From: an uncultured archaeon
GTDB lineage: Archaea > Altiarchaeota > Altiarchaeia > JAFGQM01
Length of the DNA stretch: 64,000 nt
Assembly: GCA_964592405.1 (NCBI GenBank)
Contig: CAZQBY010000001.1
Coordinates: forward strand, 78,737 to 142,736
Direction: 5' to 3'
Shown: piece by piece, positions 41,351 through 59,173 of the stretch
Position numbering within the stretch: position 1 is the first letter of the stretch
Layout of the letters: each line of letters starts with the position of its first letter
Notes under the pieces: model-generated
Told to the model about the DNA's origin: nothing
What the model saw: only the letters and a program-made list of their open reading frames with translations
Databases searched by the model: none
Position numbers and translations under genes: made by a program

Positions 41351-42337
41351 TCATCCCTCCCGCTTTTTATATCTTGAATAAATGGTCTCAACTCTCTTTC
41401 TCAGCTTACCAGTTATCTTATCAGCCTCCTCCTTATCTATTCTTACAGCCCTACTGCATTCAGCCTCAAACAGTCCCTTGAACCTATTTGCCAGTTCCGG
41501 CGAATTTATATAAACAGCTCCGACACCCATGCTTTTCTCATCTCGGACCATCAGGAAGAACTCATTCATATCTTCATTATGCGGTATTATCATGTCGAGA
41601 CCATAGGGAGAGGGGCTGTAGAACAGCTTCAGCTTTTCATTATTGGTTATGAAGTCTGCCAAGCCATTAAGGACCATATTAATCTCATCATAAGCATATC
41701 TTGGATTCTTATAGGCTCTCGCCAGCCTCCTAAAGAGGTATTCGATGTCAAAGTGTGTCAGATAGTTGACTTCTAGTTCCTTCTTCATAATACATCTCTC
41801 CCAAAGGGTCTGCACATACAGCCGGGCGCCCGGAATCTGCATCAGGGATGGTGATTGGGCGTAGAGAATCCGGGGAAATATGCCAGTAACATAACATATC
41901 TTTGCGGTTTTCAGGAGTCCAGCAGTTTTGTAATACATATCATCATAATCAAAAAACATGACAGCAGGCTCCTTTCTCTTGACTGAGAGCCGCCCGAAGA
42001 ACTCCATAACCCCGCCCCTAATCTCATCAAGCTCATATATCTCAGTGTCGAGAAAGTTTCTGGCTTCATCCAGAGCCTTCTTTATTGCGTTGAAATCTAT
42101 CTCATAAGATGCTTCATCAGTCTTCTTGACAAATCCCCGCTCGCGCAGATTCTTGAGTTGGGCAAAGAAATTTGATTTTTGTATTCTCCTGGACTGATGC
42201 AGTTCTGCATCCCTATCTATAATTGCCTTCGGACTAGCCTGTTTTCCCTCCTTCTGTAAACTGACTATGGCTTCAATTATATGAAACTGTTGCTTGGTGA
42301 TCCCCAACCACCTTGGGAGCTTTTCAAGTTCGTTCAT
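41351..42337 (-). CDS. Divergent TrmB-like wHTH regulator
   Basis: LGIT...KSNFFAQLKNLRERGFV wHTH, coiled linker, and C-terminal INSPELANRFKGLFE resembling TrmB effector domains. Confidence 0.7.
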   Translation of the reverse strand: MNELEKLPRWLGITKQQFHIIEAIVSLQKEGKQASPKAIIDRDAELHQSRRIQKSNFFAQLKNLRERGFVKKTDEASYEIDFNAIKKALDEARNFLDTEIYELDEIRGGVMEFFGRLSVKRKEPAVMFFDYDDMYYKTAGLLKTAKICYVTGIFPRILYAQSPSLMQIPGARLYVQTLWERCIMKKELEVNYLTHFDIEYLFRRLARAYKNPRYAYDEINMVLNGLADFITNNEKLKLFYSPSPYGLDMIIPHNEDMNEFFLMVRDEKSMGVGAVYINSPELANRFKGLFEAECSRAVRIDKEEADKITGKLRKRVETIYSRYKKREG

Positions 42338-42757: not shown

Positions 42758-42793
42758 CTATGTGCCGGACATAGACTATGTGCCGAACATAGA
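42758..42793. repeat. 18-bp tandem duplication of the platform gene 3' end
   Basis: CTATGTGCCGGACATAGA / CTATGTGCCGAACATAGA (one mismatch); each copy is self-complementary. Confidence 0.85.
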
Positions 42794-44920
42794 ACCAAAG
42801 AAAAAGGCCATTCCGGTCTTCATCAGAATGAACATGCCCAAAGTAGCTGGTACCAACAAGGGAGCGAGTTTCAGTCCAGCGCTTTGTTTACCCTTCCTTA
42901 TGAGACCTATGAGCAGTGAGCCGAAGAATCCTACACTGAACAGGGAGATCATAGCAAAGATTTCCAGATACTCCGGCTTTATGCAGGAGGGAGGTAAGGG
43001 AGGAGCACCTCTTTCATACTGTTCCAGATAAGTTATGCCAAGCTCAGGGTTGATGTTTTGTGCATCGGTGCTGTTCTTTGGATTCAATCCATGCTCCCTT
43101 TCCCATGTATCTGCTATACCATCGCGGTCAAAATCCTTGGGGCATCCGCCCCCGCCAAGCGAGAGCATATCAAAACCCTGCATACCGCCCATCATAGGTC
43201 CAGCTCCTGCGGATGAGATGTCGATATCCATCTCCTCAGGCTGGAATCTGTTCATAATATCAACAAACTGAATAGAAACTGAGAAGAGCAGTGGCGCTCC
43301 AAGAACCATGCCAAAGAGAATGAATAGTATATAGGACATGGTGTTTGCGGCCATCTCTTTTTGTAAGAGCCTCATCTGTCTTATATCATTGCCAATACCC
43401 TGCAGAATCTGTGGCAGTTCGCCACCAGCTTTCATACCCTGAATAAGAAGGCGTATGGTTCTCTGGAGGACATTGGATCTCACCCGGTTCCCCATATCTG
43501 TCAGGGCATCTGCGAAGGATTTGCCTCCCAAAGTTTCCTTCTGCGCTATTTTTATCTCCTCTGCAAGGGCTCCAAACTCCTTTCTGGCGGAGACCCAGAG
43601 GGCATTATAGGGTGTCATACCAGCTGATATGTTGGCACTGACTATCTGAAGAACGTCGGGTAAGGCATTCTCAACTTCATCTGTACGCTTATCTGCCATC
43701 ATATTGATAACCGAATATATGATCACCCAGACTATGCCAAAGGAAAAAATTGCTGCAATAACCACAAGTAACAGATCCCAGTTCAAAAGAAAAAAGCCGA
43801 TTGTAGATACTAGAGCCGCCAGAACCACTCCATTGACTATTGTGATACCGGTTATCTCAATCTGTGTCTTCTCAATACCGCTGTAGATGATGAGCATGTT
43901 TATCTTTTTCTTCCAGCCAAATGGTGAGAACCTCCCAACCCTCCTGTATATGCCCTGCAGGAAGCCGGAGACTCCCTTTGCCACGAGCTTGCCTAGGTTT
44001 ATTGGGATAGAGAGAATGGTCGTAAAGAACACAAATACACTGTGGGACATCCTACCAAACATGCCTCTAATCCCTCTGCTGACTGCCCTGAACGGGCTGC
44101 TGATGGTCCTTCTTCTCTTCTCCCGCCTCTCCAGTTTTTTCTGGGCTTCAGCCTCCTCAATAATTCTTTGTTCCTCTAAAATCTCCTGAATTCTCTTGGC
44201 TCTCTCGGAGATATAAGGACTTATGGTTTTGGGACCAGCAAGCCCAACCTTCTCCTCTTTGGATACCATGCCTGCTTTGGATCCCCTCTTATCAACTATC
44301 CTGAATGTAGGCTCCTTTTTGGCGGCTTTTGCCTTATTGATTTTATAAATCTCCGTAAGAGGGAGATCCTTTCCGCCAACAGTTCCGCCGGCAGGAGCAA
44401 TAGCCTGGTCTTTATCCTCTTCTGCATGTTTCTCTTCTCCATGTTTTCCCTCCCAGCCTGTTCTGCTTGGAGTTTTCCCTTCCGGTTTTTTGCTCTCCTC
44501 TGCTTTCTTAGCTACTACTCTGGCCTCTTTTTTGACTTTTTTCTCCTTTTTCTCGGATTTCCACCTATCCAGAACCCTGCTCAGTGCCTTGTCAATATCC
44601 TTGAGTCTTGAATAGGCCAGCAGTGTGCCCCTTTTTAGAGCTTCTTCCTCACTCACACCAAGCCTCTTCATGATGTCCTTCCTGAGTTTCTTCTCCGGAC
44701 TGCCAAATAATCCCTTTTTTGTCTGCAATAGGGCTGAAAGAAGCTCCTCTGTTTTGAGAGCCGCAATCCCGGGTCTGAGTGGAACCAAAACCTCCTTCTT
44801 GCCAGTCCTCTTCACTTTTGCTCCATCTCCAGACGGTGCGGCTTTGCTTCTGCGTTCTTCCTCTATTATCTCATCCAGGGATTTTATATCCATCTTCCCA
44901 CTGCCACCTACTGGGCTCAC
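42776..44920 (-). CDS. Type IV pilus platform protein (TadC/PilC/T2SS-F) with long N-terminal extension
   Basis: VENALPDVLQIVSANISAGMTP...FGALAEEI T2SSF motif; multiple TMs; DxDxDG-type insert. Confidence 0.9.
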   Translation of the reverse strand: MSPVGGSGKMDIKSLDEIIEEERRSKAAPSGDGAKVKRTGKKEVLVPLRPGIAALKTEELLSALLQTKKGLFGSPEKKLRKDIMKRLGVSEEEALKRGTLLAYSRLKDIDKALSRVLDRWKSEKKEKKVKKEARVVAKKAEESKKPEGKTPSRTGWEGKHGEEKHAEEDKDQAIAPAGGTVGGKDLPLTEIYKINKAKAAKKEPTFRIVDKRGSKAGMVSKEEKVGLAGPKTISPYISERAKRIQEILEEQRIIEEAEAQKKLERREKRRRTISSPFRAVSRGIRGMFGRMSHSVFVFFTTILSIPINLGKLVAKGVSGFLQGIYRRVGRFSPFGWKKKINMLIIYSGIEKTQIEITGITIVNGVVLAALVSTIGFFLLNWDLLLVVIAAIFSFGIVWVIIYSVINMMADKRTDEVENALPDVLQIVSANISAGMTPYNALWVSARKEFGALAEEIKIAQKETLGGKSFADALTDMGNRVRSNVLQRTIRLLIQGMKAGGELPQILQGIGNDIRQMRLLQKEMAANTMSYILFILFGMVLGAPLLFSVSIQFVDIMNRFQPEEMDIDISSAGAGPMMGGMQGFDMLSLGGGGCPKDFDRDGIADTWEREHGLNPKNSTDAQNINPELGITYLEQYERGAPPLPPSCIKPEYLEIFAMISLFSVGFFGSLLIGLIRKGKQSAGLKLAPLLVPATLGMFILMKTGMAFFFGSMFGT

Positions 44921-44962: not shown

Positions 44963-46474
44963 CTATCTGAAATTATAGTATATAGGCCCTGTATCTTCTG
45001 TTTCCCTAAGCTCGTCCTCTACCGCATCAAACTTCGGCCCCTTCGTGATAATCGTGCCACCTATGATGGAGTATTGGGATTTCACAAGTCCGGCATCCTC
45101 CAACATCTTTACCCAGCCTTCCAAAAGCTTTTTGTCGACTCCAAGCTCTTTGACGGCATTGCCTATGCTTATCTTCTCTCTATGGTCAAGAATCTCCAGT
45201 AACCGGTCTATTTCTGTGAGCACCTCCCGCCCTGTGCCAATTATCTCCTCCTCGGGTATCTCCCCTTCCTCAGGGCTTTTTTGCACCGCTTTTGCCGTTT
45301 CTTCCCTTCCAACTTCCTCTTTAACCCCCGTCCCCTCCTTGGTCTTCTCTTTCGCCTCCTCCGGGATTTGCCCCTCCACCCCAAGTTCCTCTTTAACGGC
45401 TTCTCTGGCCTTTTTAAGTAATCTATCTCCAGCCTCTTCTTTTTCCACTTCTTCCCTGAGGGCCTCCCGGATGCTCTTTAGGGGCTTTCTTGTCCAACCC
45501 TTTTCAACCTCTGCCTGTTCCTTCTCACTCACTATAAGTGTGGCTGAAACCAGTTTGCCACTTCCTTCGAGCTTCATTATCCTGACACCCTGAACATTAC
45601 GCCCCATCTCAGGTATTTCACCTGCCGCCATCCTTAAGACACGACCTGTAGATGTTGTAAACATAACCTCATCATCTCCACGAACAGCCCTTGCAGCTAC
45701 TACTAAACCATTACGCTCATTAGTCTTTATGTCTTTGACTCCAAGTCCACCACGTCTCTGAAGGGGATACTTGTCAAATGATGTGCGTTTACCGTAACCA
45801 TTTTCAGTTGCAGTGAGGAGTGTAGCACCCTTGGCCACCACAGTAGCACCAATCACACTACTTCCTTTCTTGAGTCTGATTGCCCTAACCCCCATGGTCC
45901 CTCTCCCTGTTGGTGATACCTCCTCCTCGCTGAATTTTATTGCATAACCATCACTGGTCGAGACCAGTATCTCATCTTTACCTGTAGTCAATAGAACCCT
46001 TACGAGATCATCATACTCTCCCAGTTTTATTGCTATAATGCCTCCCCGTCTTGGATGACTATACTCACTCAGATTGGTCTTCTTTATCATACCCTCCTTA
46101 GTCACCATGGTGAGATAATAATCCTTCCTAAATTCGCTTATCCTCATAGCTGAGGTTATCTCCTCCAGCTTCTTCAATTCTAGGAGTTTTGTGATAGGTT
46201 TACTGCGCCCCTTGGCAGGTATCCTGCCAACCTCCAACCAATGCACCCTCCCCCTGTCTGTGAAGAACAACATCAGGTCCTTGGTTGAAGCCACAAATAT
46301 TCTCGCTAGGAAGTCACCCTTTCTCGTCCTCAGGCCCTTCACACCCTTACCACCCCTTCGCTGGGCACGATATTTGTCGAGTGACAATCTCTTCATATAA
46401 CCCTGATTAGTGACAGAAACTATAACGGCCGGTCCCCTCTTTCCTCCCTCCTCATTCCTTTTCAAGCGTATCAT
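44963..46474 (-). CDS. Stand-alone GyrA C-terminal beta-pinwheel fused to a charged linker and wHTH domain
   Basis: Six GyrA-CTD blades including the GyrA-box QRRGGKG; no breakage-reunion domain; AGGAGG RBS. Confidence 0.88.
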   Translation of the reverse strand: MIRLKRNEEGGKRGPAVIVSVTNQGYMKRLSLDKYRAQRRGGKGVKGLRTRKGDFLARIFVASTKDLMLFFTDRGRVHWLEVGRIPAKGRSKPITKLLELKKLEEITSAMRISEFRKDYYLTMVTKEGMIKKTNLSEYSHPRRGGIIAIKLGEYDDLVRVLLTTGKDEILVSTSDGYAIKFSEEEVSPTGRGTMGVRAIRLKKGSSVIGATVVAKGATLLTATENGYGKRTSFDKYPLQRRGGLGVKDIKTNERNGLVVAARAVRGDDEVMFTTSTGRVLRMAAGEIPEMGRNVQGVRIMKLEGSGKLVSATLIVSEKEQAEVEKGWTRKPLKSIREALREEVEKEEAGDRLLKKAREAVKEELGVEGQIPEEAKEKTKEGTGVKEEVGREETAKAVQKSPEEGEIPEEEIIGTGREVLTEIDRLLEILDHREKISIGNAVKELGVDKKLLEGWVKMLEDAGLVKSQYSIIGGTIITKGPKFDAVEDELRETEDTGPIYYNFR

Positions 46475-46486
46475 TTTGATCCTCCT

Positions 46487-47362
46487 TTAGACTATGGGCC
46501 TCTTGTTCTTTATTATACCTACAAGCATGAACTGAAAGAAAAACATGAACACCACTATCCCTCCAAAAACCAGATTTTTGTCTATGGCACCAAAAATGTC
46601 GACAAGTGTTGAGAGTATAATAAGGAGGGTTATGCCCTGCGAGGGAAGGACAATCACCATAAGCATGTACATCAGGGACCAAAGATTCATCTCCTGACCA
46701 TATGCTTTGATTTTTGTCTCCTTGTCGCGTGTCAGATCATTGCTGATGGCCTTCAGGGCAATGCTTACATCTGAGCCGGTGTACATACTGTTCACTATCT
46801 GCCATATTATCCTCCTCAGGAAGGGTGAAGATGTGTGCATACCCACTTCATCTAGGGCCCGGATAACTGACTCGCCGCTTTCTACCTTCTTGATAACCTC
46901 GCCGAACTCTTCTGAGCATTCCCCATAGCCGCCGTTGGCCACATGCACCAGAGCATCAAAGATTGGTATTCCGGCACTTGTCTGTATTTCAAGATCCTTA
47001 AGCGCATAGCCCAAGTTCTTCTCTATCATGGCAGATCTCTTTCTTATCTTGACCTTTGGCATCAGGAGCATGTAGATGAGCATAAATATGCTGAGGCCCA
47101 CTGAGGCACCTATGGCCATCGGCAGGCCAATATCTAGTTTGTTTACAAGATAAGCAGGGAGGGCTATGCCAACAAATGTTGCCAATCCCACGGACAAAGC
47201 CATATATATGACAATGGAAATATAAGTCAGGGGGGTAACATGTATGCCTGCCCTCTCAAGATCCCACTCAAGCCCCGGTGTAATCCTCTCAAGCTTCTGG
47301 GCTAACCCTATAAACGGCTTTGATGTGTTTATAAGTCTTTGGGATTCAAAGGCTGAGGGCAT
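46487..47362 (-). CDS. Type IV pilus platform protein (TadB/ArlJ-like, T2SS-F)
   Basis: IEKNLGYALKDL...SAGIP...YGECSEEF; TMs; directly follows the ATPase. Confidence 0.9.
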   Translation of the reverse strand: MPSAFESQRLINTSKPFIGLAQKLERITPGLEWDLERAGIHVTPLTYISIVIYMALSVGLATFVGIALPAYLVNKLDIGLPMAIGASVGLSIFMLIYMLLMPKVKIRKRSAMIEKNLGYALKDLEIQTSAGIPIFDALVHVANGGYGECSEEFGEVIKKVESGESVIRALDEVGMHTSSPFLRRIIWQIVNSMYTGSDVSIALKAISNDLTRDKETKIKAYGQEMNLWSLMYMLMVIVLPSQGITLLIILSTLVDIFGAIDKNLVFGGIVVFMFFFQFMLVGIIKNKRPIV

Positions 47363-47445: not shown

Positions 47446-48987
47446 TTATCTCTTCAGCCCTTCAAGTTCTGCCTTTCCGGCCATCAGTTGCTCATACGTG
47501 CTACCTGCTCCAATCTCCTGCATAACCCTTTCCCTATCCATGTAATACTCTGAAACTACCCTCCCAACAGAGTCAACATCCCTTACCCCGTTGTCCAGCA
47601 TCCAATTCAGTACAGACATCTTGTCTTTGAGATTCTTTCTTATCTCGGCCTCCGTATAGCCTGTGTGCATTTCTATCTCATCTATAAGCCTCCTGCTCTT
47701 ATTAACGGGTTTGATTGAATCCGTCTTGGCATCCCACCGGTAGAGGATGTTTATCTCTGGCTCCTCACCTTCAGTGGTGAGCACCTCAGCCAACTCAAAT
47801 GTCCGTCTGGCACCGGTTCTTCTGTTTCTGTACTGAACAACTATAAGATGGAGCGATTCCATAACGGTCTTTGGCACATCCATGGGTGGGTTGGTTAGCC
47901 TCTTAACCACTTGATAAGCCCTTTCTGCGTGGAATGTACCATACACTGAATGACCCGTATGCATAGCCTCAAAGAGGACCTCAGCCTCCCGCTTCCTTCT
48001 AACTTCACCTACCACTATCCGGTCTGGCCTCATTCGCAGGGAGTTCTCCATCAGGTCCAGCATCCCCACCTCTCCCTCACCGCGCGGATTTGGCGGTCGT
48101 GTATTCAATGGAACCCAATGGAGGAAAGAGGGCAGGTTCAGCTCTCGGGTATCCTCAATTGTCACGACTCTGTGATTCGGCGGGATGAATGGCATAAGTG
48201 CGTTCAGCAGTGTTGTCTTACCGGATGCAGTCCCACCAGCTACAAGCATAGACAATTCATACTCCATGGCAAGCCAGAGCAGAGCTGCCACATCCACCTG
48301 CACAGTCTTGATCTTGGGGTCTATTAGGTGTATGATGGTCCACGGTATTCTGCTAAACCGCCGTATTGTTATTGTGTTTCCTGCCGTAGATATCGGGAAA
48401 AGGGTGGCATTGACTCGGTCTCCGGTGGTCAGGTGGGCGTCCAGCAGTGGCTCAGCGGAGGTTATCTCTCGGCTCACCAGCCGGGCAACCCTCGATGCCA
48501 GATTTTGTATAGCCTCTTCTGTCCCCATGCTAATATTGGATTTAAGCCAGCCGTACTTCTTGCTGTAGACCCAGACGGGTTCTCTGGCACTGTTGACAAC
48601 TATCTCTTCAAGGCTATCATCAGCCAGAAAGAGCTCCAAGTCGCCAAGCCCTATCATCTCATTCACTATCCGGGTTGAAAGCATTTCCTTTATTTCTTGC
48701 TTCATGTTGGGCAGTTCCTTGCCGAGTGCATTCTCTGCATCCTTTCTGAACTTCTCCTTGAGTTCCAAAAACAGTCTTGGGTCTAATATCTCTCGGGCTT
48801 CTATCTCCATATCGGCAACAAGTCTGGATTTCACATCATTCATTACAACCCGTGTAGTTGTACTTACCTCTGGCACCTTCGCATTGTAGTGAAGAACATA
48901 GTCGCCCACATCAGCAATTTCCACAAGTACGGGTATCTTCCCAGCCTTCAGGTTGTATTGCTCTTTGATTTTGGTTTCCCCAGCCAT
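47446..48987 (-). CDS. Type IV pilus assembly ATPase (CpaF/VirB11 family)
   Basis: [39 protein letters not shown]. Confidence 0.95.
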
Positions 48988-48995
48988 AATATGGA

Positions 48996-49718
48996 TTACC
49001 CTCTACTGCTGTTCTTTTTTCTTGTTACAGCGGACTTCGTTCTGCCTTTGGTCTGCCCGTTGCTCTTATTTGCTGATGCAGTTGGTGCAACTCCCTGTTC
49101 CCCCTTCTTCAACTCCTCCAGTATCTGGCGGAGAGTCTCGATGTATTCCGTGAGCTTCTTCCCCTCCGCGATAAGCAGATTCATATACTCCATGACCTTC
49201 TGTTCTTCGTCCTGAAGCTTCCTCATGTTCTCCTGCACTATTGCCTCCTCATCCTCTATCCGCTTTCTTATGAGGAGATACTTCATGGATGTATCAATGG
49301 GTTTTTCCTGTTTTGCCGGTTCCGGCTTCCCAACAGCCGGAGTAGCCGTGGTGGTCATGGCAACTGCTTTTGCTTCTCCTGCAGGCTTCTGTGGGACTTG
49401 TGCCTTCACTGCAGGTGCAGTTACACCTGCGGCTGGAGCAGATTTTGTCTCTTCGGTCTTCAATCCCGGGGCTTGGATGCCCTCCTTGCCACCTCCTGTC
49501 AGAAGGGTGTCAAACTTGGGTCCTCTCTTGACAAAGGCTCCGCCTATGACGGAGTAGTGTAGCTCCACAAGTCCAGCCTTCTCCAGCATACGCGTCCAGC
49601 TCTCTATGTGCTCTTTATCTGTTCCAAGTTCCTTGGCGGCATCCGAGACCTTAATAGTGTCTTTTTTCTCTAACAACTCTACGAGCTGATCCATGCTTGT
49701 CGAGACCCCCTCATCCAT
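48996..49718 (-). CDS. wHTH plus Ala/Pro linker plus coiled-coil protein
   Basis: N-terminal DAAKELG...WTRMLEKAGLV wHTH, homologous to the C-terminus of 44963..46474. Confidence 0.8.
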   Translation of the reverse strand: MDEGVSTSMDQLVELLEKKDTIKVSDAAKELGTDKEHIESWTRMLEKAGLVELHYSVIGGAFVKRGPKFDTLLTGGGKEGIQAPGLKTEETKSAPAAGVTAPAVKAQVPQKPAGEAKAVAMTTTATPAVGKPEPAKQEKPIDTSMKYLLIRKRIEDEEAIVQENMRKLQDEEQKVMEYMNLLIAEGKKLTEYIETLRQILEELKKGEQGVAPTASANKSNGQTKGRTKSAVTRKKNSSRG

Positions 49719-49719
49719 C

Positions 49720-50514
49720 TCAGAACACCTGTTCTTCCAGATATATAACTATTCCCTCATCCCCTATCTTGAAAGGCACCATCTTTTTCAGATGGTTGGT
49801 GAATCTCATCTTGAGGACCTCTATGGCTCGTGTCCTCACAGAATCCCGCCTTATGTTATAAAGGACAACCACACCATCAACCACAAATTCCTCAATGCCG
49901 TTTCGACTATACACATTGGGTTCCTGCTCACATTCAGTGGTAACCAGATTAACTGAATTATATCCCCTTAATGAGTCAAACAGCACTTTGATATACGCCC
50001 TGTATTTCCTATCGTCCGAAAATGCTACTGCTAGGTCCGAGAGCGAGTCTATTATAACCCTGTCTGGATGAAATGGCATGGTGACCTCTTTTATATCCAC
50101 GGACATGTTCTTCAACCTGCCTATAACCTGCTCGATGCTCCTCTCTTTGACTATTGTCTCAATTGAGCGGGCGATATCATACGGCTCAACCCTTTTTATA
50201 GCAAAATTTCCATTTTTCTCAAGTTTGTCCAGATCCCAGCCGAAACTGTTATACATGTGGCCCTTTATCCTCTCGGGTTCCTCATTTAGCGAGAAAAACA
50301 CAACCTTCTCACCATTCAGGGCAGCGTGATATGCTGACTGGGTGACAAACATGGTCTTCCCACTGCCACATCCTCCTGATATTAAAATTGTACTGCCTCT
50401 CTCTAATCCCTCCGTATCTAGCATTCTGTCAAAGGTGGAGACATATGTTGGTGAATACTCCAGATTGTAGGGGTTTTCCACCTCAGGACCGCCGGTATCC
50501 ATTCTTTTTGCCAT
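49720..50514 (-). CDS. KaiC/RecA-superfamily ATPase
   Basis: GGCGSGKT, RVIIDSLS, EEFVVDGVVVL, VLKMR. Confidence 0.9.
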   Translation of the reverse strand: MAKRMDTGGPEVENPYNLEYSPTYVSTFDRMLDTEGLERGSTILISGGCGSGKTMFVTQSAYHAALNGEKVVFFSLNEEPERIKGHMYNSFGWDLDKLEKNGNFAIKRVEPYDIARSIETIVKERSIEQVIGRLKNMSVDIKEVTMPFHPDRVIIDSLSDLAVAFSDDRKYRAYIKVLFDSLRGYNSVNLVTTECEQEPNVYSRNGIEEFVVDGVVVLYNIRRDSVRTRAIEVLKMRFTNHLKKMVPFKIGDEGIVIYLEEQVF

Positions 50515-50558
50515 TTTCTATTTTTGTCTGATTAAACATCTCCTATATAAGCAGCTTT

Positions 50559-50882
50559 CTAGTCAGCTGCAAAGCCATACATCTCTCCCACTCTCTTGGC
50601 TGCCAGGGAAGAGCCGGATATCAGTGCAAAGAGGGCTACCAGAAATATGGTAACCACATAGAAGTTACTGTCTCCGGCCAGTTTCTCCATCTTTAACAGC
50701 ACCATTATCCAGCAGGCAAATACTATAGCCACTATAGTCAGAGCGACCAGGTAGCGGAAAAGGTTGCTTATCAGTGTATCGGTTATGCCCTTTCCTGCCT
50801 TCCTCAGCCATGCCAGCGAGATGAAACCCATGGCGATGATGAGGTATATGATCACCACAAGTATTGCATCATCCATTTTCAT
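50559..50882 (-). CDS. Small 3-TM membrane protein
   Basis: Three hydrophobic helices; overlaps the upstream gene's stop. Confidence 0.75.
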   Translation of the reverse strand: MKMDDAILVVIIYLIIAMGFISLAWLRKAGKGITDTLISNLFRYLVALTIVAIVFACWIMVLLKMEKLAGDSNFYVVTIFLVALFALISGSSLAAKRVGEMYGFAAD

Positions 50883-51444
50883 CGAGTGTGATTACAGCAT
50901 CACAGAACTGAGTAAGCTGACTGATAAATTCCGGGTCTGTTTCCTTTTCAACCGACATGAGTATGCCCCTCAGGCCCCAGACACGCATCCTGCCAGTCAG
51001 GAAATGGCTGAACTTGGCCACAGTCCCAACACTCCGGTATATCAACAGTGTGGAGAGCGAATCCATAAACAGAAACTTGTCCTCAGAGGGTATGTGCCGG
51101 ATAGCCTCCCCCATCGCCACACCTATACCGGTCAGGTTTTCGGGTGTGTCAAGATAAAAAACCTTCTTGTCATTCTGGTCTATCTCTCCCCCCGATGTCT
51201 TGGTTATACAGTCGATGAAGAAGAGATTGTCAGTCTTGATTCCCTCTTCCTCAAGTATTCTTTTCATTGTCTTATAGGGCTTATTGACTGTTATATAAAC
51301 TCCGGGCAGATTTTCCTCATTGGCAAGCACCCTGAGTATCTCAATGTTTGTCTTCTGGTAGTCAACACTTTTCACGTTTATGAGAACTATTAGGTTCTTG
51401 GGCAGAGATCTTATGTAATCCAGCAACTCCTTCATATTCTTCAT
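50869..51444 (-). CDS. Inactivated KaiC-like domain protein (DUF835-like)
   Basis: GVYITVNKPY, FFIDCIT, FMDSLSTLLIY, FCDAVI; no Walker A; start at 51444 or 51435. Confidence 0.78.
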   Translation of the reverse strand: MKNMKELLDYIRSLPKNLIVLINVKSVDYQKTNIEILRVLANEENLPGVYITVNKPYKTMKRILEEEGIKTDNLFFIDCITKTSGGEIDQNDKKVFYLDTPENLTGIGVAMGEAIRHIPSEDKFLFMDSLSTLLIYRSVGTVAKFSHFLTGRMRVWGLRGILMSVEKETDPEFISQLTQFCDAVITLDENG

Positions 51445-51517
51445 ATTCTTAATATTATAGACACCTATTAATGTCGCAGAGAATAAAAAAGGAGTTGGGT
51501 CGTTCCCTGAGCCGTTC

Positions 51518-52339
51518 TCAAAATCCAAAAAACCGCCTCTTTTTCTCTTTTTCCCTAACCTCTTTTCTCATTGCCTGCAGGGCCTCCCTCACCTTCTCGG
51601 CATCAAGTTCACTATCGCCTTCTGTAAGTACCTTCTGCCACTCGTTGAGTGTTCTTTCCGCCTCTGCTTCAATACTGCTCCCGCTCAGGATATCCACACC
51701 CCCCCATTCCTCATGGATATCGCCCCCTTCCATCCTTGGAACCCTAAGCATTCGCACGTTGCGTTCCCTTTTAATTTCAATAGTCCCCTCGGTCATTGAT
51801 TCTACAGCCGTTACTATATGGGGCTCAAACATGCCTTTTTGCATCTCAAGCAGACATACAATATTTTTCCCCCTAACTATCTGGCTTATCCTCTGTATGA
51901 ACTTAAAAACAACATCCTTCTTGTTCATGAGGAAAAGATAAGATAGGTCATCAACTATCATCCTCGGATTCTCGGACTCAAAACTGGAGGTGAGGCGCTC
52001 ACAGTTGTAGGCTATGTCTATCAGATCCTCAAAGTTACCCACCAGGGAGGGTACCCTTTTATTGACCACACCATTGTATAAGATGAACTTTACATTGGGA
52101 TTGTCCCGCACATTCCATCCGCACCTTTCCATACTTAACAGGGCGCGGTCTAGGGAGTAATTTGTCAGCAGATAAATGCCTTCATCATTGTTGCTGGCAC
52201 CCCGGTAAAGGAAGTTCCTGAGCAGTGTAGTCTTACCGGCTCCGGGTTCACCTATCACGAGTATCATCGAACCCGGTATCAGGCCGCCGCCAAGCATCTC
52301 ATCCAGCTTCTCCAGACCCGTAGAGACCCTTTCCATCAT
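51518..52339 (-). CDS. KaiC/RecA-superfamily ATPase
   Basis: RVSTGLEKLDEMLGGG, GEPGAGKT, IVDDLS. Confidence 0.9.
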   Translation of the reverse strand: MMERVSTGLEKLDEMLGGGLIPGSMILVIGEPGAGKTTLLRNFLYRGASNNDEGIYLLTNYSLDRALLSMERCGWNVRDNPNVKFILYNGVVNKRVPSLVGNFEDLIDIAYNCERLTSSFESENPRMIVDDLSYLFLMNKKDVVFKFIQRISQIVRGKNIVCLLEMQKGMFEPHIVTAVESMTEGTIEIKRERNVRMLRVPRMEGGDIHEEWGGVDILSGSSIEAEAERTLNEWQKVLTEGDSELDAEKVREALQAMRKEVREKEKKRRFFGF

Positions 52340-52490: not shown

Positions 52491-54620
52491 CTATGTCTTA
52501 AATTCCCAGATCTCACTCCAGTCGCCCCAATTGCCGGCATTGTCCTGCGCACGGACGCGCCAGGAATACCACTTGTTGTTGGAGAGGCTGGAATCGTAAT
52601 GGTAAATTGTTTCCCAGACATATACATCTATTTCGGGGTTATCCCAATCGGGAGCGCTCTGATCGCACTGTAACTGATAGCGATATATCCCACTTGCATC
52701 GGATGCTGCAAACCAGGCAAAGGTTGGATCCCTCTCCACTCCTGTCTCTCCATCAGCCGGAGAGATAAGCTGTGGAGTTGTCGGTGGATTATTGTCCCCG
52801 CCGGTGCAGTTGGCCACAAATATCACCGTCTCAGTAGATGGGGTTTCGTAAAGCCCGTCATTATCTACGGCCCTTGATATCAGGGTGTATTTATTTGTCT
52901 CCTGCGGGGTGAATGTGTAATTCCACCAGCCCCCATCCCATGTGGTGTTATACCATACACCGTTTATTGACAGTTGCACTTCCTCTACATCACCATCACA
53001 GTCATCGGCACTTCCATTAATATGAACGGATGAGCAGCCCTCCCGCAGGGTATCATTGGCAGGTTCTAGGACTATGGAAACGGGCGGGACTCCAGATGCA
53101 TTGACCTCTGCGGTATCAAGTGAATATGCGTAAGCATGCTGGCAGTCCAGTCTAAATTCATAGGTCCCTCCTGCACAGACACCCATTACAGGAGATCCTG
53201 TCTTGTTTGCCCAGTAGAGATAATCCACCCATGTAGCCCCGGTGTTTGGGCTGACACCATGCTCAGCCAGATCATAAAGGCTGACAAGGGTCTCTATGCC
53301 TATGTATGGATTGCCGAAATGCTCCAGAGACTGGTTCATGTACTTCTCTGAGAGGTTTAGCCTTCCATCCAGCCGGTCGAAGAAGGAAGGGCCATTCGGG
53401 TATCTTTCATCGCAACCTGCCTCATATTGCGTCACGTTGCTTATAACATAGCATGTGGTATTTACCTCATCACTGCTGTAGCCTAGTAGAACATTATGCA
53501 CGTCACAGTCGGGTATGTTCTTTATCAGCGCGCATGTTCCGGTGGTGAGATACCCATCCTGACAGTCCGGATCCGCCTGATGCCCCTGGCCCTGCTGGGT
53601 CTCATTGTCTATCTTTCCGGTGGCAGATATCCATGGTATAGTCACATTGCATTTGTCTACAAAGCTACTCTCAGGGTCGTTCTTTGCGTATTCTATGACA
53701 CCTGCCAGGTGGTGTGGATTTGTTATGTCGAAGCAGTCGTATTCCAGTCCGGAACAAGCACCAAAGGCCATGTCAAATACAAGTATAACATCGTTTATGT
53801 CAGACGTCGTGGCGCAGTACTCGCCAAGACCGGGATCATCCTTTATATTGGAATAGAAGACTATATTGCCTGCCCCGGTCCCATCGCCCCAGTTCTCCGT
53901 GCTACATCCGGCAAGACTCTCGATGCTGATATCCGGACTGCAGTTGTAGATGTACTTGGTAATCCTGTTGCTGGTGTGCAGTGGATAGAGCGGGTCCTCA
54001 AGACCTATTATATCCGTCAACGACTCAAAAGTGACGTTTGTTCCTGTATAGTAGCACAGTCCTGTTTCATCCTCAATCCGCACATTGTTATCCAGGATTA
54101 TTGCGAAGTTCCATGCATTGTAGGGGACTATGGTAATGTTCTGGATATCTATGTCCAGTGAGTATCCCCTCTCCTCAGCATCTGCCTCTATCCTGTCCAG
54201 CCATATGGGAACTGTGTGGTTGACCATGTAGGTGACGTTCTGGCCATAAAGGGTGCCGCAGAGTACCAGCTCAGCCAGTGCCGCCTCGGAGCCGTTGTTT
54301 GTATAGACGTAGTCAGTACAGTTATGGAAGGTGTAATTATGCAGGGTTCTGTTGTTTGTGACAACATCGTCTATAGCATAGATGGCAGCCCGCCTTCCAA
54401 AAATAAGCATGGCCCTCTCCAGGTCATACTCAACATCCTGCACAAAATAATAAAGCTCATCACATCTTATACGCCCTGACAAGTCCTCCAGTTTTGTTCT
54501 TGTTGTGCTGGTATAAAACAGTATCAGCAGTGTCAGTGGTATGACTAAAAGTATTACGGCTATTGTGTACAGGTAGCCCCTCCTGCCTATCCCTCTTCCG
54601 CTTTTTGGTTTTATATCCAT
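52491..54620 (-). CDS. Large pilin-like adhesin with C-terminal Ig/Fn3-like domains
   Basis: Class III-like signal RRG|YLYTIAVILL; Cys-rich; C-terminal SRAVDNDG and WRVRAQDNAGNWGDWS. Confidence 0.82.
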   Translation of the reverse strand: MDIKPKSGRGIGRRGYLYTIAVILLVIPLTLLILFYTSTTRTKLEDLSGRIRCDELYYFVQDVEYDLERAMLIFGRRAAIYAIDDVVTNNRTLHNYTFHNCTDYVYTNNGSEAALAELVLCGTLYGQNVTYMVNHTVPIWLDRIEADAEERGYSLDIDIQNITIVPYNAWNFAIILDNNVRIEDETGLCYYTGTNVTFESLTDIIGLEDPLYPLHTSNRITKYIYNCSPDISIESLAGCSTENWGDGTGAGNIVFYSNIKDDPGLGEYCATTSDINDVILVFDMAFGACSGLEYDCFDITNPHHLAGVIEYAKNDPESSFVDKCNVTIPWISATGKIDNETQQGQGHQADPDCQDGYLTTGTCALIKNIPDCDVHNVLLGYSSDEVNTTCYVISNVTQYEAGCDERYPNGPSFFDRLDGRLNLSEKYMNQSLEHFGNPYIGIETLVSLYDLAEHGVSPNTGATWVDYLYWANKTGSPVMGVCAGGTYEFRLDCQHAYAYSLDTAEVNASGVPPVSIVLEPANDTLREGCSSVHINGSADDCDGDVEEVQLSINGVWYNTTWDGGWWNYTFTPQETNKYTLISRAVDNDGLYETPSTETVIFVANCTGGDNNPPTTPQLISPADGETGVERDPTFAWFAASDASGIYRYQLQCDQSAPDWDNPEIDVYVWETIYHYDSSLSNNKWYSWRVRAQDNAGNWGDWSEIWEFKT

Positions 54621-57247
54621 AGTACCAGCTCAAGCTGTGCCGGTCCCCAGAGGGAGCGAACCCCTCCAATACTGCCGGTGTCCAGACTTATCTGATTTGC
54701 GTCAAACTTTATATCCAGCCTGCCGTCATCATCCAAATCGAGCATTGAGAACAGGCGGTAGGTTGCATCCGCAATGGCATCGTTCGTTGAATAGCTGATA
54801 TTACCCGGCAGGTAGGTGCATATGCTGTTGCCTGTATATGTCTCGGGTATCGCAAGCGTTGTCGTGTCTCCATCATCAAATTCAATGTCCCAGTTACACC
54901 CCTCTGCGGATGGAAAGACATTGCCATACGGTGTGGAGCCGCCCATCTTTATTGTTACTATCGCCCGGTTGTCCAAGGAACATCCTGTCTCGTTTGTGGG
55001 GGAATCCCCTGTGGTCAGTTGTATGGTGTTGTTTTCACCCGAGTTGATGTAATCGGCAGGTATGCTGACGATGTATGGGTCCCCCAGGACAAAATAGTCT
55101 GTGCCATAATCGCTTAGGCGATAGGCAACCCTGGTCCCGTGGCTGTTCTGCACGTGTAGGTAGTGTGTCCAGTGCTCCGAGGAATATGATGTAACCTTGG
55201 CATCTATGGCCTCTACATCAGAGGGCAGGTAAATGTGCCCCAAACATGTAGTATTGTCATTAAACCTTTCAGTATCATATGTCAGTGAAAGCTCACCATA
55301 CCCAAGTGATGGGCTTGCGGGATCATAGGTGTAGTGTATGTAGGAACCGGGATCAAGTCTCGACCATGTAACCGAGCCCGTGAGGTTTACTATCTGCGAC
55401 TTTATCGCCCCGGATACTATGTTTTCCGCAAAGAGGATATAGCAGTTTCTCAAATCCGCGGGATCCCTGCTGGAGCAGTAGGACCCGTTCCCCACCTCGG
55501 CTATCCTTGCCATTGTATAGTTGCCATTGTAGCAGTCCTCGACCGGGCCGAAGCCGACGGAGTGGATGGTAGCAGGTATGTCATCATGGGCCCTCTGGGC
55601 GGACCATATGGCATTGTTTATAGCTCCATCACACTGGCTACCACTACAATCGGATGAACCCCCGCCGCATACCCATATCAGCCCTGTTGTGCTTGTTCCC
55701 TGTGAGTTGCACCATGCCCACCACCACCACCCGGTTATTCCACAACAGTAGTTGGTTATTCCATCGCTCATTACTACTATGAACTTCTCTCTCTCCGGCG
55801 ATGACTGGGAGTTTAGGATGTTATATGCCCTGTTTATGGCACAGCAGATACACGTTCCTCCGGACGCATAATACCCGTCTATCTCGCTCTCAAGGCTCTC
55901 CTGATCTGTAGAGAGGCTGTGGTAGTCATTGGCATTGTTGCGGAAGCTCACAAGTCCCACACGATTGCCCGTATTGTTTAGTATTATGTCAACAAACAGC
56001 TTGTCAAGGCATTTGGCAAGGCTTATCCTGCTGGTGTCATTATCCAGCAGATGGGAGTCATTACATTCCCTGTCCACACCGTCAACACTGTCGGCGTAAC
56101 CTGTTCTCCACGCCATGCTTCCTGAGGTGTCTGTTATGAGTATAACATCCGCATTGCCTGCCTGCACAACCTCGGAGATGTTGGATGTGCCCAGCCTTAT
56201 GGGCACAGTGTTCTCGCTCAGGGCATTGTAGTTCAGCTTTGTCTGCAGGTAAGAATCATCCAAATCAACAGTCTGTGTGGATGCACTTCCTGTGGAGTTG
56301 TATACCAGCACATCTCCTATCTTCAGGAACGTTGTGTAGTTGTTGTCAAAGACCAGATGGATGTCCATGGATTCCAGTGTGCCCGGCACATAGAAAGAGG
56401 AGTAGTAATTTATCAGCCCGTCTATCCCCGGGAATTCAAAGGTCTTCTCCCCGGTATCGGAGGTCTCGTTCAGGAGGCTTGTATTGTATGTAACCCTTAT
56501 GAATCCCCCCCCTATAAACCATTGCTGTTCATCACTGCCCGTGAAATCAATTTCTATAGTGTTTTTGCCTGTGGTGAATGCACAGGAACTTATGTCTTCC
56601 TGAATGTCGGCCGAAAGGTATCCGCCAGAGGGCGTATGCGGATTATTGCAGGATTGTCCGTTTACATACATATTGAACTGGCTCCCCGCATCCATCTCCA
56701 TATATGCGCCTGTTATGGTAACGCCGTTCGGAACATACAAATATTTTGTCAGGTTGCCCTGTCCGGCAAAACCTCCAAAGTAGGCATAGACCGAGCTGGT
56801 TTTCTGTGTTATGCCGGTCAGGAAGCCCCTGGCCACACTGCCTATGGTGGTCCGGTTCTTTTCATATCCGGCCAGCAGGCGCATTGCGGAGGTCTTGGCT
56901 ATCGCGCTGCTTTCGGGAACCCTTGCATTATAGGCTACACGCTCCCTGTCAAACAGCACTTCGTAACCAATATTTGCCGGAACCAGTAGATCAAAATACT
57001 GCCTGCTCAGATTGGCGGCACCACTCTCGTTCCCTCCGACCCACTCCTGTCCTATCCTGTCGAGTATGCCCATCTTGTTCATCACGTCAAGCACGTCCTC
57101 AGAAATCGCATGGAGGTTTATAAATGCTATTGTGGTGGTTTCACTTAGGTCTGTATAGCGGTAGGCAGACATGGCCAGGAATATCAGGAGTATAAACATC
57201 ATTGATATTACTGCATCCAGCGTAAGGCTAAATCCTCGTTGTTTCAT
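54611..57247 (-). CDS. Pilin-like adhesin with vWA domain
   Basis: QRG|FSLTLDAV signal; MIDAS DTSGS, GGT, VMSDG, SVGFG. Confidence 0.87.
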   Translation of the reverse strand: MKQRGFSLTLDAVISMMFILLIFLAMSAYRYTDLSETTTIAFINLHAISEDVLDVMNKMGILDRIGQEWVGGNESGAANLSRQYFDLLVPANIGYEVLFDRERVAYNARVPESSAIAKTSAMRLLAGYEKNRTTIGSVARGFLTGITQKTSSVYAYFGGFAGQGNLTKYLYVPNGVTITGAYMEMDAGSQFNMYVNGQSCNNPHTPSGGYLSADIQEDISSCAFTTGKNTIEIDFTGSDEQQWFIGGGFIRVTYNTSLLNETSDTGEKTFEFPGIDGLINYYSSFYVPGTLESMDIHLVFDNNYTTFLKIGDVLVYNSTGSASTQTVDLDDSYLQTKLNYNALSENTVPIRLGTSNISEVVQAGNADVILITDTSGSMAWRTGYADSVDGVDRECNDSHLLDNDTSRISLAKCLDKLFVDIILNNTGNRVGLVSFRNNANDYHSLSTDQESLESEIDGYYASGGTCICCAINRAYNILNSQSSPEREKFIVVMSDGITNYCCGITGWWWWAWCNSQGTSTTGLIWVCGGGSSDCSGSQCDGAINNAIWSAQRAHDDIPATIHSVGFGPVEDCYNGNYTMARIAEVGNGSYCSSRDPADLRNCYILFAENIVSGAIKSQIVNLTGSVTWSRLDPGSYIHYTYDPASPSLGYGELSLTYDTERFNDNTTCLGHIYLPSDVEAIDAKVTSYSSEHWTHYLHVQNSHGTRVAYRLSDYGTDYFVLGDPYIVSIPADYINSGENNTIQLTTGDSPTNETGCSLDNRAIVTIKMGGSTPYGNVFPSAEGCNWDIEFDDGDTTTLAIPETYTGNSICTYLPGNISYSTNDAIADATYRLFSMLDLDDDGRLDIKFDANQISLDTGSIGGVRSLWGPAQLELVLWI

Positions 57248-57309: not shown

Positions 57310-57816
57310 TCATATCCAGACAACAAAGTTGAATCTTATTATTGTATTATTGAAAATGGCTGTCCTCAAAATGGCAAGAGTCTCTGTTTCATCCACCGGC
57401 ATCTTGCCGGCTATGAAGTCTCTTCCGTTGATTTTGACTATGGAGCCGTTCAGATATGTGGCATTCATATAAAACTCATACGGATCTATGCTCACAAGAT
57501 ACTTGTTTTCATCATAGTTGGAGCCGTTTGAGTCCATAAGATCGATGAAATCCAGGGCTTTTGTTTTGTTTATTATCCTGTCCTCGCTCGACAGCCCCGG
57601 CACATCCACCGTGAAGTAGTTCCAGTCCTCCGGCGTGCCGGGGGTTCTTATCAGCTGCTCAACGGCCTGGAAGGCTATTTTCTGCATGTTTCGGAGGTTC
57701 TCTGCGCGATTTATGTCCTCTGTGGTGCTGTTCCACAGGAAGAGGGCCATGGCCAGCGATGCCAAGAAAACGAATGTCGCTATCGCAATGTCTCCGCTGA
57801 AGAGCTGTCCTTTCAT
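57310..57816 (-). CDS. Minor pilin-like protein
   Basis: MKG|QLFSGDIAIA plus hydrophobic helix; ATGA overlap with the upstream gene. Confidence 0.8.
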   Translation of the reverse strand: MKGQLFSGDIAIATFVFLASLAMALFLWNSTTEDINRAENLRNMQKIAFQAVEQLIRTPGTPEDWNYFTVDVPGLSSEDRIINKTKALDFIDLMDSNGSNYDENKYLVSIDPYEFYMNATYLNGSIVKINGRDFIAGKMPVDETETLAILRTAIFNNTIIRFNFVVWI

Positions 57817-58661
57817 TTTAGTTCTGTTATGAGGGTATATGTGCCATTGTAAGAACAATCTGGAGAATCCACATCCAGTCCAAGTATGTAGGTATTTCCT
57901 CCCTGAACACTAAACACATGACTTGTTTGTGTCTCGAGCTGGAATATACTTTCAGGTGAGTTGCACCCATTTGCCGTATAGTCATAGAATATCATATCAG
58001 TTTTGTCCGAACCGGTCATGGTTCCGCTTCCCCGGAAGGTTATCTTGAGATTACCGCTCTTTTCGGGAACTATCTTGTAGATATGCCACTCATCCGTAGA
58101 ACACCCATAAAAAGAACACTGGCTTATGCTGTTCTGATGAATCTGCACAGGGTCCGGAACGTCGCAGGTTGGACAGGTATCAAAATCGCCCGCATCGCAG
58201 CTCTGGACGCTCCCACATCCCATATCTGACAATCCGCAGATGTCGTTTACCAGAACTTCGCCATAGGAATTATATACGCAGTTTGATTCACTTTCCCCCT
58301 TCTCCAGATGCACTATTGTAACGTTGTCTGTGACGAGCGGAGCTACCGTGTTCTCGTCAGCATAATTAATCCACAGGAAATTATCACCAGCTGAGATATT
58401 GTATTCAGTATTTCCGTAGAGGACTTCAGGAACCGAGAAATATCTGTAATATCCGTGCCCATTTATGGAGATTACGTTGATGTTGTCTGCTATGCTTGTG
58501 GCCACCCTCTTTGCATCAAGATATCGCTGGAATTTGTATGACTCGTCCTGTTTTTGGAACACTATCAACAGTATCACCAAAAAGACGAGCATTACAAATG
58601 ATACCACCACATTGAACTCCGGGCTCCCTTGGGATTTACATCTCATCCTTCCCTTGGCCAT
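57813..58661 (-). CDS. Minor pilin-like protein with Cys-rich C-terminal domain
   Basis: KS|QGSPEF plus hydrophobic helix. Confidence 0.78.
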   Translation of the reverse strand: MAKGRMRCKSQGSPEFNVVVSFVMLVFLVILLIVFQKQDESYKFQRYLDAKRVATSIADNINVISINGHGYYRYFSVPEVLYGNTEYNISAGDNFLWINYADENTVAPLVTDNVTIVHLEKGESESNCVYNSYGEVLVNDICGLSDMGCGSVQSCDAGDFDTCPTCDVPDPVQIHQNSISQCSFYGCSTDEWHIYKIVPEKSGNLKITFRGSGTMTGSDKTDMIFYDYTANGCNSPESIFQLETQTSHVFSVQGGNTYILGLDVDSPDCSYNGTYTLITELK

Positions 58662-58700
58662 CGGGCTCTTGCCTATTATGTTGCCTATTTATGATACAGG

Positions 58701-59159
58701 CTATTGGTATATGTTTATGGTCCCGTTGTAGACGGACTCATAATCCGTTGATTCGACTGTCAACACATAATACCCCTCTTTTGATGGAAAGGCAGTCGAG
58801 CTGCCATAAAGATCCCATCCCACCTCTCCTCGCGTCGATCTCCAAACATCAGTGTGGCTGCCAGCAACATTGACTGCAAGGTTGATGGTTTTGTTGGCAA
58901 TGAAGCTACGGGTTTCATCTATGTCACTCGGGATATAAACACTGATTTTCAGTTTGGTCGGGTGGCCGTGTATGTAGACAAAGTCTGCAGCCTCCTTCAT
59001 CCGGGTCACGGCTCTTTCGGCGCTGTTTATGTCTATCTCTTTCTCCGAACTGTTAATGCGGTTATAGGCTGCGACAAGCAGTATCAACAGTACAAGCATG
59101 GTGAATCCGGTCAGGACTAGATACTCCATGGCTGCCTGGCCTCGTCTCCTGCTTGTCAT
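58701..59159 (-). CDS. Minor pilin (class III signal)
   Basis: RRG|QAAMEYLVL. Confidence 0.88.
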   Translation of the reverse strand: MTSRRRGQAAMEYLVLTGFTMLVLLILLVAAYNRINSSEKEIDINSAERAVTRMKEAADFVYIHGHPTKLKISVYIPSDIDETRSFIANKTINLAVNVAGSHTDVWRSTRGEVGWDLYGSSTAFPSKEGYYVLTVESTDYESVYNGTINIYQ

Positions 59160-59173
59160 TTACCTTTTAATGT

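Follow-up and report, generated by a model that had tools for sequence, protein, structure and literature searches.

A stand-alone gyrase A C-terminal domain joined to a winged helix within an archaeal type IV pilus operon: a hint of a link between DNA and the pilus motor

We describe a 64,000-nucleotide (nt) stretch of DNA, referred to throughout as the window, from an uncultured archaeon of the Altiarchaeota (assembly GCA_964592405.1, contig CAZQBY010000001.1), and within it a gene that encodes the C-terminal domain (CTD) of the gyrase subunit GyrA as a protein of its own, placed between two platform genes of a type IV pilus cluster. The genome (G000), assembled from a metagenome, is a draft with 22 contigs, a total of 1.13 Mb and an estimated completeness of 87%. 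The gene, at 44963..46474 on the minus strand, starts with ATG and appears in the list of open reading frames, with its translation, as a protein of 503 amino acids (aa), which we call P0001. A Shine-Dalgarno-like AGGAGG motif (46481..46486, minus strand) lies 6 nt ahead of the ATG and touches the TAA stop codon (46487-46489) of the upstream gene, which encodes a 291-aa protein of the T2SSF family; the spacing between this stop codon and the start of P0001 is 12 nt. Downstream, the first in-frame start of the second T2SSF gene, encoding 714 aa, is a GTG at 44920, 42 nt 3' of the P0001 gene. An earlier note on this DNA had described the same placement, with the gene's own AGGAGG and the two short gaps, and it can be read directly from the sequence.

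P0001 carries a six-blade beta-pinwheel of the GyrA CTD type at aa 16-314 (45533..46429, minus strand). Pfam assigns this region to PF03989 (DNA_gyraseA_C; E 5.2e-68, 224.7 bits against a cut-off of 27), scoring five stretches of it, and finds no match in the protein to PF00521, the breakage-reunion domain. The blade that Pfam leaves unscored, blade 2 (about aa 65-117), is seen when the protein is aligned, almost without gaps, to the GyrA CTD of the same genome, and the solved GyrA CTD 5ztj_A matches aa 17-302 from end to end, blade 2 included (E 7.8e-67). A second solved GyrA CTD, 1zi0_A, matches with E 1.3e-65 and the ParC structure 1wp5_A with E 1.3e-33, while the scores of P0001 are 229.7 bits to a GyrA CTD versus 120.1 bits to a ParC CTD. 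In the AF2 model the pinwheel, including its sixth blade, has a predicted local distance difference test score (pLDDT) of mostly 85-98. A GyrA-box in the first blade separates the CTDs of gyrase from those of Topo IV, and the translation of P0001 contains one, QRRGGKG, at aa 38-44 (46343..46363, minus strand), in which R40, G41, G42 and G44 are invariant in alignments A1 and A6. Pfam, the alignments, the solved CTDs and the model agree on the complete six-blade GyrA CTD, with its box and no catalytic domain, that had been claimed for this gene, and an open reading frame that starts 16 residues ahead of the first blade behind its own ribosome-binding site presents this CTD as a separate polypeptide.

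About 190 residues lie beyond the pinwheel. They begin with a Glu/Lys-rich linker (aa 315-416; 45227..45532, minus strand) of net charge -7, modelled at low pLDDT with partial helices, whose length differs among P0001 and its two homologs P0003 and P0004 (alignment A1). A winged-helix domain follows at aa 417-490 (45005..45226, minus strand), delineated by a family alignment of 18 rows (A4), by the AF2 model made from it, in which the topology is H-E-H-H-E-E and the core has a pLDDT of 86-92, and by Foldseek. The low-pLDDT linker and this fold bear out the Glu/Lys linker and C-terminal winged helix-turn-helix that had been proposed from the sequence. The last residues form a tail ending in GP(I/N)YYNFR (44966..45004, minus strand), modelled at low pLDDT, which is common to P0003 and is not found in P0004 (A1). 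The protein had also been said to lack a signal peptide, and none is evident by eye, no predictor having been applied. A 182-aa antisense frame (45045-45593, plus strand) crosses the Glu/Lys linker; we take it for the usual antisense mirror of low-complexity coding DNA rather than for a gene.

The sequence of the pinwheel speaks to what it may bind. In 27 GyrA CTDs, 83 columns are conserved at 90% or more; P0001, P0003 and P0004 retain 72-74 of them (P0001 retains 74), and the most divergent genuine GyrAs keep 76 of 86 conserved columns. The arginines of the individual blades (R40, R191, R241 and R292) do not vary. Six GyrA-conserved positions are altered in all three paralogs (E57, H65, N96, R187, G198 and T294), and two of these changes, H65K and N96K, add a lysine in every paralog. 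The net charge of the pinwheel is +23 in P0001 and +16 in both P0003 and P0004; the CTDs of 100 database GyrAs have a median of +7 and range from -5 to +15, all of them less basic than the pinwheel of P0001. Such features are those expected of a module that would still bind a polyanion, most simply DNA. The winged helix of P0001 has a net charge of -4 and an isoelectric point of 4.9; its third helix contains a conserved Glu and a conserved Trp, and the tip of the wing is Gly-Gly. These traits are unusual for a domain that reads DNA, fit docking onto a protein, and make DNA binding by the domain less probable.

The genome has a separate full-length gyrA, a point that the earlier note had left to be checked: a normal gyrB-gyrA pair lies on contig C5, the CTD gene being on contig C1, and the 955-aa GyrA encoded there is the only PF00521 match in the genome. 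The pinwheel of P0001 is 50-58% identical to the CTD of this GyrA. In a CTD tree of 61 sequences, made up of the three paralogs, six GyrAs of family f1, two from family f3 and half of the 100 full-length database GyrAs, taken alternately (the tree omits the GyrA of G002, a congeneric genome, and a fragment from G006), the paralogs form a single clade with an SH-like approximate likelihood ratio test support (SH-aLRT) of 100. That clade is nested among the six f1 GyrA CTDs only (SH-aLRT 96), and the paralog pinwheels are 53-58% identical to the GyrAs of the family versus at most 53% to any match outside it. Because the pinwheel branches within the lineage's own GyrA clade, as the phylogeny that had been called for shows, it is a duplicate of the 3' part of the lineage's own gyrA and not a product of transfer. 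We also observed that the GyrAs of the family have a long acidic C-terminal tail with a motif of about 30 residues, ..P[DE]Y[LI][LW]RYIKANP.SP[KR]A[IV]..A.[EQ]YG..., at or near its end; it is present in four of the five family GyrAs inspected (L009:1330-4197, which is the GyrA of G000, and those of L013, L014 and L015) and not in the two f3 GyrAs. Alignment A1 had hinted that this motif might be a truncated winged helix, an idea that we rejected when a profile of the winged-helix family made without the three paralogs gave E values of at least 27 (Z = 2000) across seven GyrAs.

The winged helix points to a source closer at hand. Residues 418-485 of P0001 share 49% identity (E 1.9e-17) with the N-terminal domain (49503..49706) of a 240-aa protein encoded in the same operon next to the gene of the pilus secretion ATPase, and the winged helix of P0001 is a paralogous copy of that domain. 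In the ESM Atlas, the clusters closest to the 240-aa protein all carry the label "hypothetical protein" and are archaeal. The domain, of about 65 aa, is found across the class (A4). In family f1 it heads a protein of 190-240 aa directly upstream of the ATPase ortholog at four of five loci, the fifth lying at a contig end. In families f4 and f5 a protein with this domain is again directly upstream of the ATPase ortholog (L030, L032, L033, L034 and L037); these proteins, of 314-332 aa with one of 511 aa, consist of a DUF2226-like N-terminal domain, a charged linker and a C-terminal winged helix. In genome G022 (L043:2817-3755, plus strand) the winged helix stands in frame before a putative class III signal peptide, which is followed by a pilin domain homologous to a 152-aa protein of the window. 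Overall, 6 of the 11 class-wide loci with a BLAST match place the winged helix in a pilus gene cluster. Since it is adjacent to the ATPase in families f1, f4 and f5 and fused to a prepilin at L043, the domain is a recurrent, uncharacterised companion of the pilus system across the class. The f4 and f5 accessory proteins have the same layout as P0001 (a globular domain, a charged linker and a C-terminal winged helix) and differ in the partner part, which is a DUF2226-like domain or a coiled coil in the accessory winged-helix proteins and a GyrA pinwheel in P0001.

Several further occurrences of the domain came to light. At L043 the winged helix would form a cytoplasmic leader of about 110 residues that is cut off by prepilin peptidase. 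The domain heads two giant coiled-coil proteins of 1671 and 1144 aa (L040:610-5625 and L042:1853-5287, both on the minus strand) and stands at both ends of the coiled coil in a 353-aa protein (L039:3225-4286, minus strand). An apparent fusion of the winged helix-turn-helix to an MFS protein in L041 was discarded, the frame crossing a masked stretch.

The P0001 gene is a lineage-specific chimera assembled inside the pilus operon from two local pieces, gyrA and a pilus accessory gene. The earlier note had not noticed that the gene is a young, patchy and home-made chimera. P0001 shares with the GyrA CTD (PF03989) its six blades, its GyrA-box, its end-to-end alignment to solved CTDs and its gyrA descent; it has no PF00521 domain and is therefore not a gyrase subunit in the usual sense, and its pinwheel is more basic than those of the 100 CTDs compared. 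The closest known case of a free GyrA CTD is Gac, which is known as a general DNA-binding protein and is expressed inside gyrA by means of an internal promoter and an internal start codon. The abstract of PMC10127594 presents Gac of Borrelia burgdorferi as binding DNA and repressing ospC, giving it a repressor role only. Like P0001, Gac is a GyrA CTD made as its own protein without the catalytic part of gyrase. Unlike Gac, P0001 is encoded by a separate gene, on another contig than gyrB-gyrA and within a pilus operon, and has a linker and a winged helix besides; Gac is spirochaetal, whereas P0001 is archaeal and 50-58% identical to the CTD of its own genome. As a separate gene with extra domains, P0001 is not a Gac-type product.

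Proteins with the full architecture are rare. In a word-indexed search of 5.8 billion clustered proteins (7226 matches; 8000 candidates scored), it was found besides P0001 only in P0003, a 577-aa protein with 60% identity over 98% of the query, and in P0004, of 509 aa. HMMER returned 12198 matches from 1.84 billion representatives, and among the best 150 only P0001's own cluster and P0004 extend past the pinwheel. The C-terminal region alone (aa 405-503) matched only itself in the database, a result of little weight given the word-based search. Scanning the genome contigs with P0001 revealed no related locus; with the small platform protein (alignment A3) six loci were found. Within the phylum, 16 of 61 genomes have a CTD match, and a stand-alone frame occurs only in G000 and G002, so that the search of archaeal genomes for CTD-only proteins suggested earlier yields two genomes of the 61 and three full-architecture sequences in the databases. 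In G002 the operon is syntenic gene for gene, and the ortholog sits in the same slot, where its frame runs into those of the two platform genes by 4 and 11 nt; a homolog with the same architecture and the same context, on which the earlier note had made its reading depend, therefore exists. The junction between the platform genes is visible in seven operons, two of which, those of the window and G002, hold the CTD gene. Platform-gene trees group G000 with G002 at modest support (64/35 for the concatenate, 82/88 for the large protein), which fits a single gain of the CTD gene.

Other candidates for a free CTD gene did not hold. Short CTD-only database entries of the P0030 kind were examined at 12 of 80 retained loci; 11 of these carry gyrA-length frames of 771-1022 aa and the twelfth a 391-aa frame, and the entries are thus most likely gene-call fragments of full gyrA genes. 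The 340-aa CTD frame of G042 belongs to a gyrA in two overlapping frames beside gyrB, and the short CTD frames of G057, G004 and G006 are contig-end fragments. The G042 gyrA (L044:2723-5147, plus strand) consists of frames of 489 and 340 aa right after gyrB and may represent an assembly frameshift or a genuine split gene. With the P0001 query, every genome searched in families f1, f3, f8 and f9 gave a GyrA CTD match, as against none of 22 in f4 and 1 of 21 in f5, where the sole match is a contig-end fragment of 34% identity; gyrase is patchy in the phylum.

The cluster that houses the gene runs along the minus strand from about 60637 to 42776. Read 5' to 3', it opens with a 487-aa T2SSE ATPase (E 2.2e-37) and three small pilin-like genes of 182, 282 and 152 aa (57310..60637), followed by genes for a vWA protein of 878 aa and an Ig-like protein of 709 aa (52491..57247; Pfam VWA_2 and Big_7), and then by three KaiC-like ATPase genes (264, 219 and 273 aa; PF06745, DUF7504) and a gene for a small membrane protein of 107 aa (49720..52339). 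Next come the 240-aa accessory protein (48996..49718), which has an N-terminal winged helix, a Pro/Ala/Lys-rich spacer and a C-terminal coiled coil, and the pilus secretion ATPase of 513 aa (47446..48987; Pfam T2SSE, E 2.3e-34, with PilB3_C), whose orthologs are 44-81% identical across the class. The series ends with the 291-aa platform gene (46487..47362; T2SSF/TadC-like, PF00482 E 3e-14), whose product has orthologs of 77-88% identity in six related loci, then the CTD gene, and then the 714-aa platform gene (42776..44920; T2SSF/TadC-like, PF00482 E 1.5e-15, alignment A2). All of these genes are on the minus strand. The 152-aa protein begins with MTSRRRGQAAMEYLVL... and is prepilin-like by eye; its homolog at L043 has a Class_IIIsignal match that falls below the cut-off (E 1.6e-4, 22.0 bits against 23.7). 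The two T2SSE ATPases of the cluster (59174-60637 and 47446-48987, both minus strand) are only about 33% identical.

In its gene content the cluster follows the ordinary plan of archaeal type IV pilus loci of the euryarchaeal type. The main text of the census of Makarova et al. (2016; PMC4858521) describes paired TadC-like genes, ATPases of the KaiC kind and vWA proteins as features of such loci, and the shared set also includes T2SSE and pilin-like genes. The words "gyrase" and "GyrA" are absent from that main text, which describes no DNA-wrapping member of these operons. Our literature searches, this main text included, turned up no paper describing a GyrA CTD in a pilus locus, so the earlier remark that no described system has such an arrangement stands within that literature.

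Further details of the locus deserve mention. The 714-aa platform protein has a Lys/Glu-rich N-terminal extension (aa 1 to about 270), and its orthologs, at 521-912 aa, are highly variable in length. The extension contains conserved islands, for example GTLLAYSRLK and KKEPTF.IVDKR (L021, L025, L026, L028 and L029). We considered that it might have arrived together with the CTD gene and dropped the idea, the extension also being present in L025, L026, L028 and L029, all without the gene. At about aa 589-626 of the same protein, a loop with a Cys and many Asp residues (C-P-x-D-F-D-x-D-G-I-x-D ... G-L-N-x-K-N) is invariant in three orthologs and resembles a calcium-binding loop of the DxDxDG type; it lies in a presumed extracytoplasmic segment. 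A 328-aa protein (41351-42337, minus strand), HTH-like at its N terminus by eye and with no Pfam match, is encoded 438 nt downstream of the cluster, a position conserved in L020, L026, L028 and L029. Rfam has no match in the window at gathering thresholds.

What might a gyrase-derived pinwheel do in a pilus operon? The reading that we favour, tentatively and at a little short of an even chance, makes P0001 an accessory protein of the pilus motor: the winged helix would serve for docking, and the pinwheel, tied to it by a flexible linker, would hold duplex DNA. The acidic winged helix would bind the cytoplasmic pilus motor, on the secretion ATPase itself or on its partners, in the place that the resident winged-helix/coiled-coil protein takes. 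The pinwheel, strongly basic and with an intact GyrA-box, would wrap a stretch of duplex DNA, and the linker would let it reach away from the motor; DNA would in this way be kept at the pilus base. Candidate purposes are the handling of DNA that enters or leaves via the pilus, or an attachment of the machine to the nucleoid. Because close relatives have the operon but no CTD gene, P0001 counts as an accessory rather than a core component. A fuller version, in which P0001 is a cytoplasmic DNA-handling adaptor whose winged helix plugs into the motor while the pinwheel holds duplex DNA and thereby couples the pilus to DNA that is taken up, exported or anchored, we regard as distinctly unlikely when taken as a whole.

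The docking step was modelled. Predicted complexes of the ATPase (alignment A5, 9 rows) with the winged helix (A4) reached ipSAE values of 0.40, 0.37 and 0.41, against 0.00 for the best of three controls; at least 70% of the contacts recur between runs, and the partners have a pLDDT of at least 73. When the score was calibrated on 80 solved complexes and 110 mismatched pairs, 58 of the former and 2 of the latter reached the mark; 7 of the solved complexes and both of these mismatches did so at an ipSAE of 0.60 or less. Given the custom alignments used here, the counts apply only approximately. The model lends weak support to docking of the winged helix on the ATPase. The earlier note had proposed a DNA-wrapping module recruited to the cytoplasmic base of a pilus: the mid-operon slot, the overlaps in G002, the kinship of the winged helix and the weak docking signal speak for the recruitment, while DNA uptake or transfer, chromosome tethering and sensing of supercoiling stay guesses.

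The DNA receptors of bacterial competence pili (ComEA and DNA-binding minor pilins) act outside the cytoplasmic membrane on incoming DNA. They have in common with P0001 a DNA-binding part, predicted in the case of P0001, attached to a type IV filament system, with no homology between them; ComEA-type receptors are extracytoplasmic, whereas P0001, without a signal peptide, would act in the cytoplasm.

A number of results weigh against a DNA-holding pilus accessory. Five of the seven operons with a visible junction have the platform genes directly adjacent and no CTD gene (G004, L025, L026, L028 and L029). The CTD gene evolves about twice as fast as the platform genes (a G000-G002 path of 0.74 versus about 0.3), with synonymous sites saturated at 59% protein identity. 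The docking score falls in a band that is more often wrong than right unless the complex was likely beforehand. The winged-helix family also occurs outside pilus clusters, as in the 1144- and 1671-aa coiled-coil proteins, and the fold resembles that of the DNA-binding MarR/ArsR regulators. No member of the ComEC family (PF03772) was found in the 87%-complete genome, so a bacterial-style uptake route is not evident. A 184-aa frame gives the only match to the DprA family (PF02481), weak at 26.4 bits, and neither result is decisive.

The resemblance to regulators raises the best-surviving alternative, which we consider unlikely yet serious: P0001 may be an architectural transcription regulator specific to its operon, its winged helix reading an operator of the cluster, as its resident winged-helix relatives would, and its pinwheel wrapping or bending the flanking DNA so as to reinforce repression or activation, with a link to the pilus that is regulatory only. 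The top Foldseek matches in the PDB are the DNA-binding domains of MarR, ArsR and CodY, the best match, 8zde_C, being of the MarR/ArsR type (E 7.7e-4, TMq 0.61). Weak Pfam matches to MarR (16.5 bits) and Rrf2 (15.6 bits) agree with this, but both are under their cut-offs of 24.6 and 30. A TrmB-type regulator gene and the 328-aa HTH-like protein flank the cluster, many unrelated regulators are encoded in archaeal type IV pilus loci according to the main text of PMC4858521, and Gac, itself a free GyrA CTD, is a repressor that prefers one operator according to the abstract of PMC10127594. Against such a role, the domain is acidic, its third helix bears the conserved Glu and Trp, and its Gly-Gly wing tip lacks a basic residue; the genes of its family lie mid-operon, tightly coupled to the ATPase gene at nine loci, with one fusion to a prepilin; and the model weakly supports docking on the ATPase.

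It is improbable that P0001 is instead a general nucleoid-associated protein of the HU kind, or a modulator of gyrase, as its competitor or partner on DNA, whose position in the operon is an accident of where the duplicate landed. A copy of the genome's own GyrA CTD that has kept its DNA-binding features and raised its positive charge, in a gene that relatives can dispense with, would suit such a role, as would the general DNA binding for which Gac is known. This explanation nevertheless leaves unexplained both the fusion to the winged helix of the operon's own accessory protein and the same slot with overlapping frames in G002, and a protein found in 2 of 61 phylum genomes and as three database sequences is rarer than would be expected of a global one.

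We give a low probability to a pinwheel that no longer handles DNA, serving as a basic scaffold for some other polyanion or an acidic partner, for example a membrane surface or acidic protein tails, or belonging to a nearly neutral young passenger gene. The faster evolution relative to the neighbours, the patchy distribution and the six altered positions (E57, H65, N96, R187, G198, T294) would be consistent with it. The reading frames are, however, intact in three lineages, 87-89% of the GyrA-conserved columns are kept, among them the GyrA-box and R40, R191, R241 and R292, and the charge has shifted to more positive values, as in a nucleic-acid binder.

That a piece of gyrA was misjoined into the pilus operon during assembly, as might occur in a draft genome of this kind and as the earlier note had allowed for, is hardly credible: Logan contigs of three runs (X1, X2 and X3) each span both gene junctions (joints 0, loose ends 0), G002, an independent genome, has the same arrangement, and the CTD gene is too far from the genome's real gyrA CTD, at 50-58% identity, and has extra domains. 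The three runs come from three studies, all of hydrothermal vent metagenomes, and one of them may be the source sample; the GC content of the CTD gene is that of its neighbours.

Taken together, our findings hint at a so far undescribed link between DNA and the archaeal pilus motor. Their reach is narrow until a biochemical test, because the case rests on three sequences from uncultured organisms. Archaeal natural transformation needs type IV-like pili, and its DNA-handling parts are largely unknown according to PMC10133366; a gyrase-derived DNA-wrapping module in a pilus operon is a concrete and testable candidate for the connection between pilus and DNA. Should P0001 prove to be a regulator, it would still provide a clear and datable case of a new gene put together locally, from the gyrA and the pilus accessory gene of the same organism. 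The finding also draws attention to an uncharacterised winged-helix family beside the pilus ATPase across a class of small-genome archaea. If P0001 does hold DNA at the pilus motor, it would be the first candidate for a cytoplasmic, DNA-side component of archaeal pilus-linked DNA traffic, made from a recycled topoisomerase domain.

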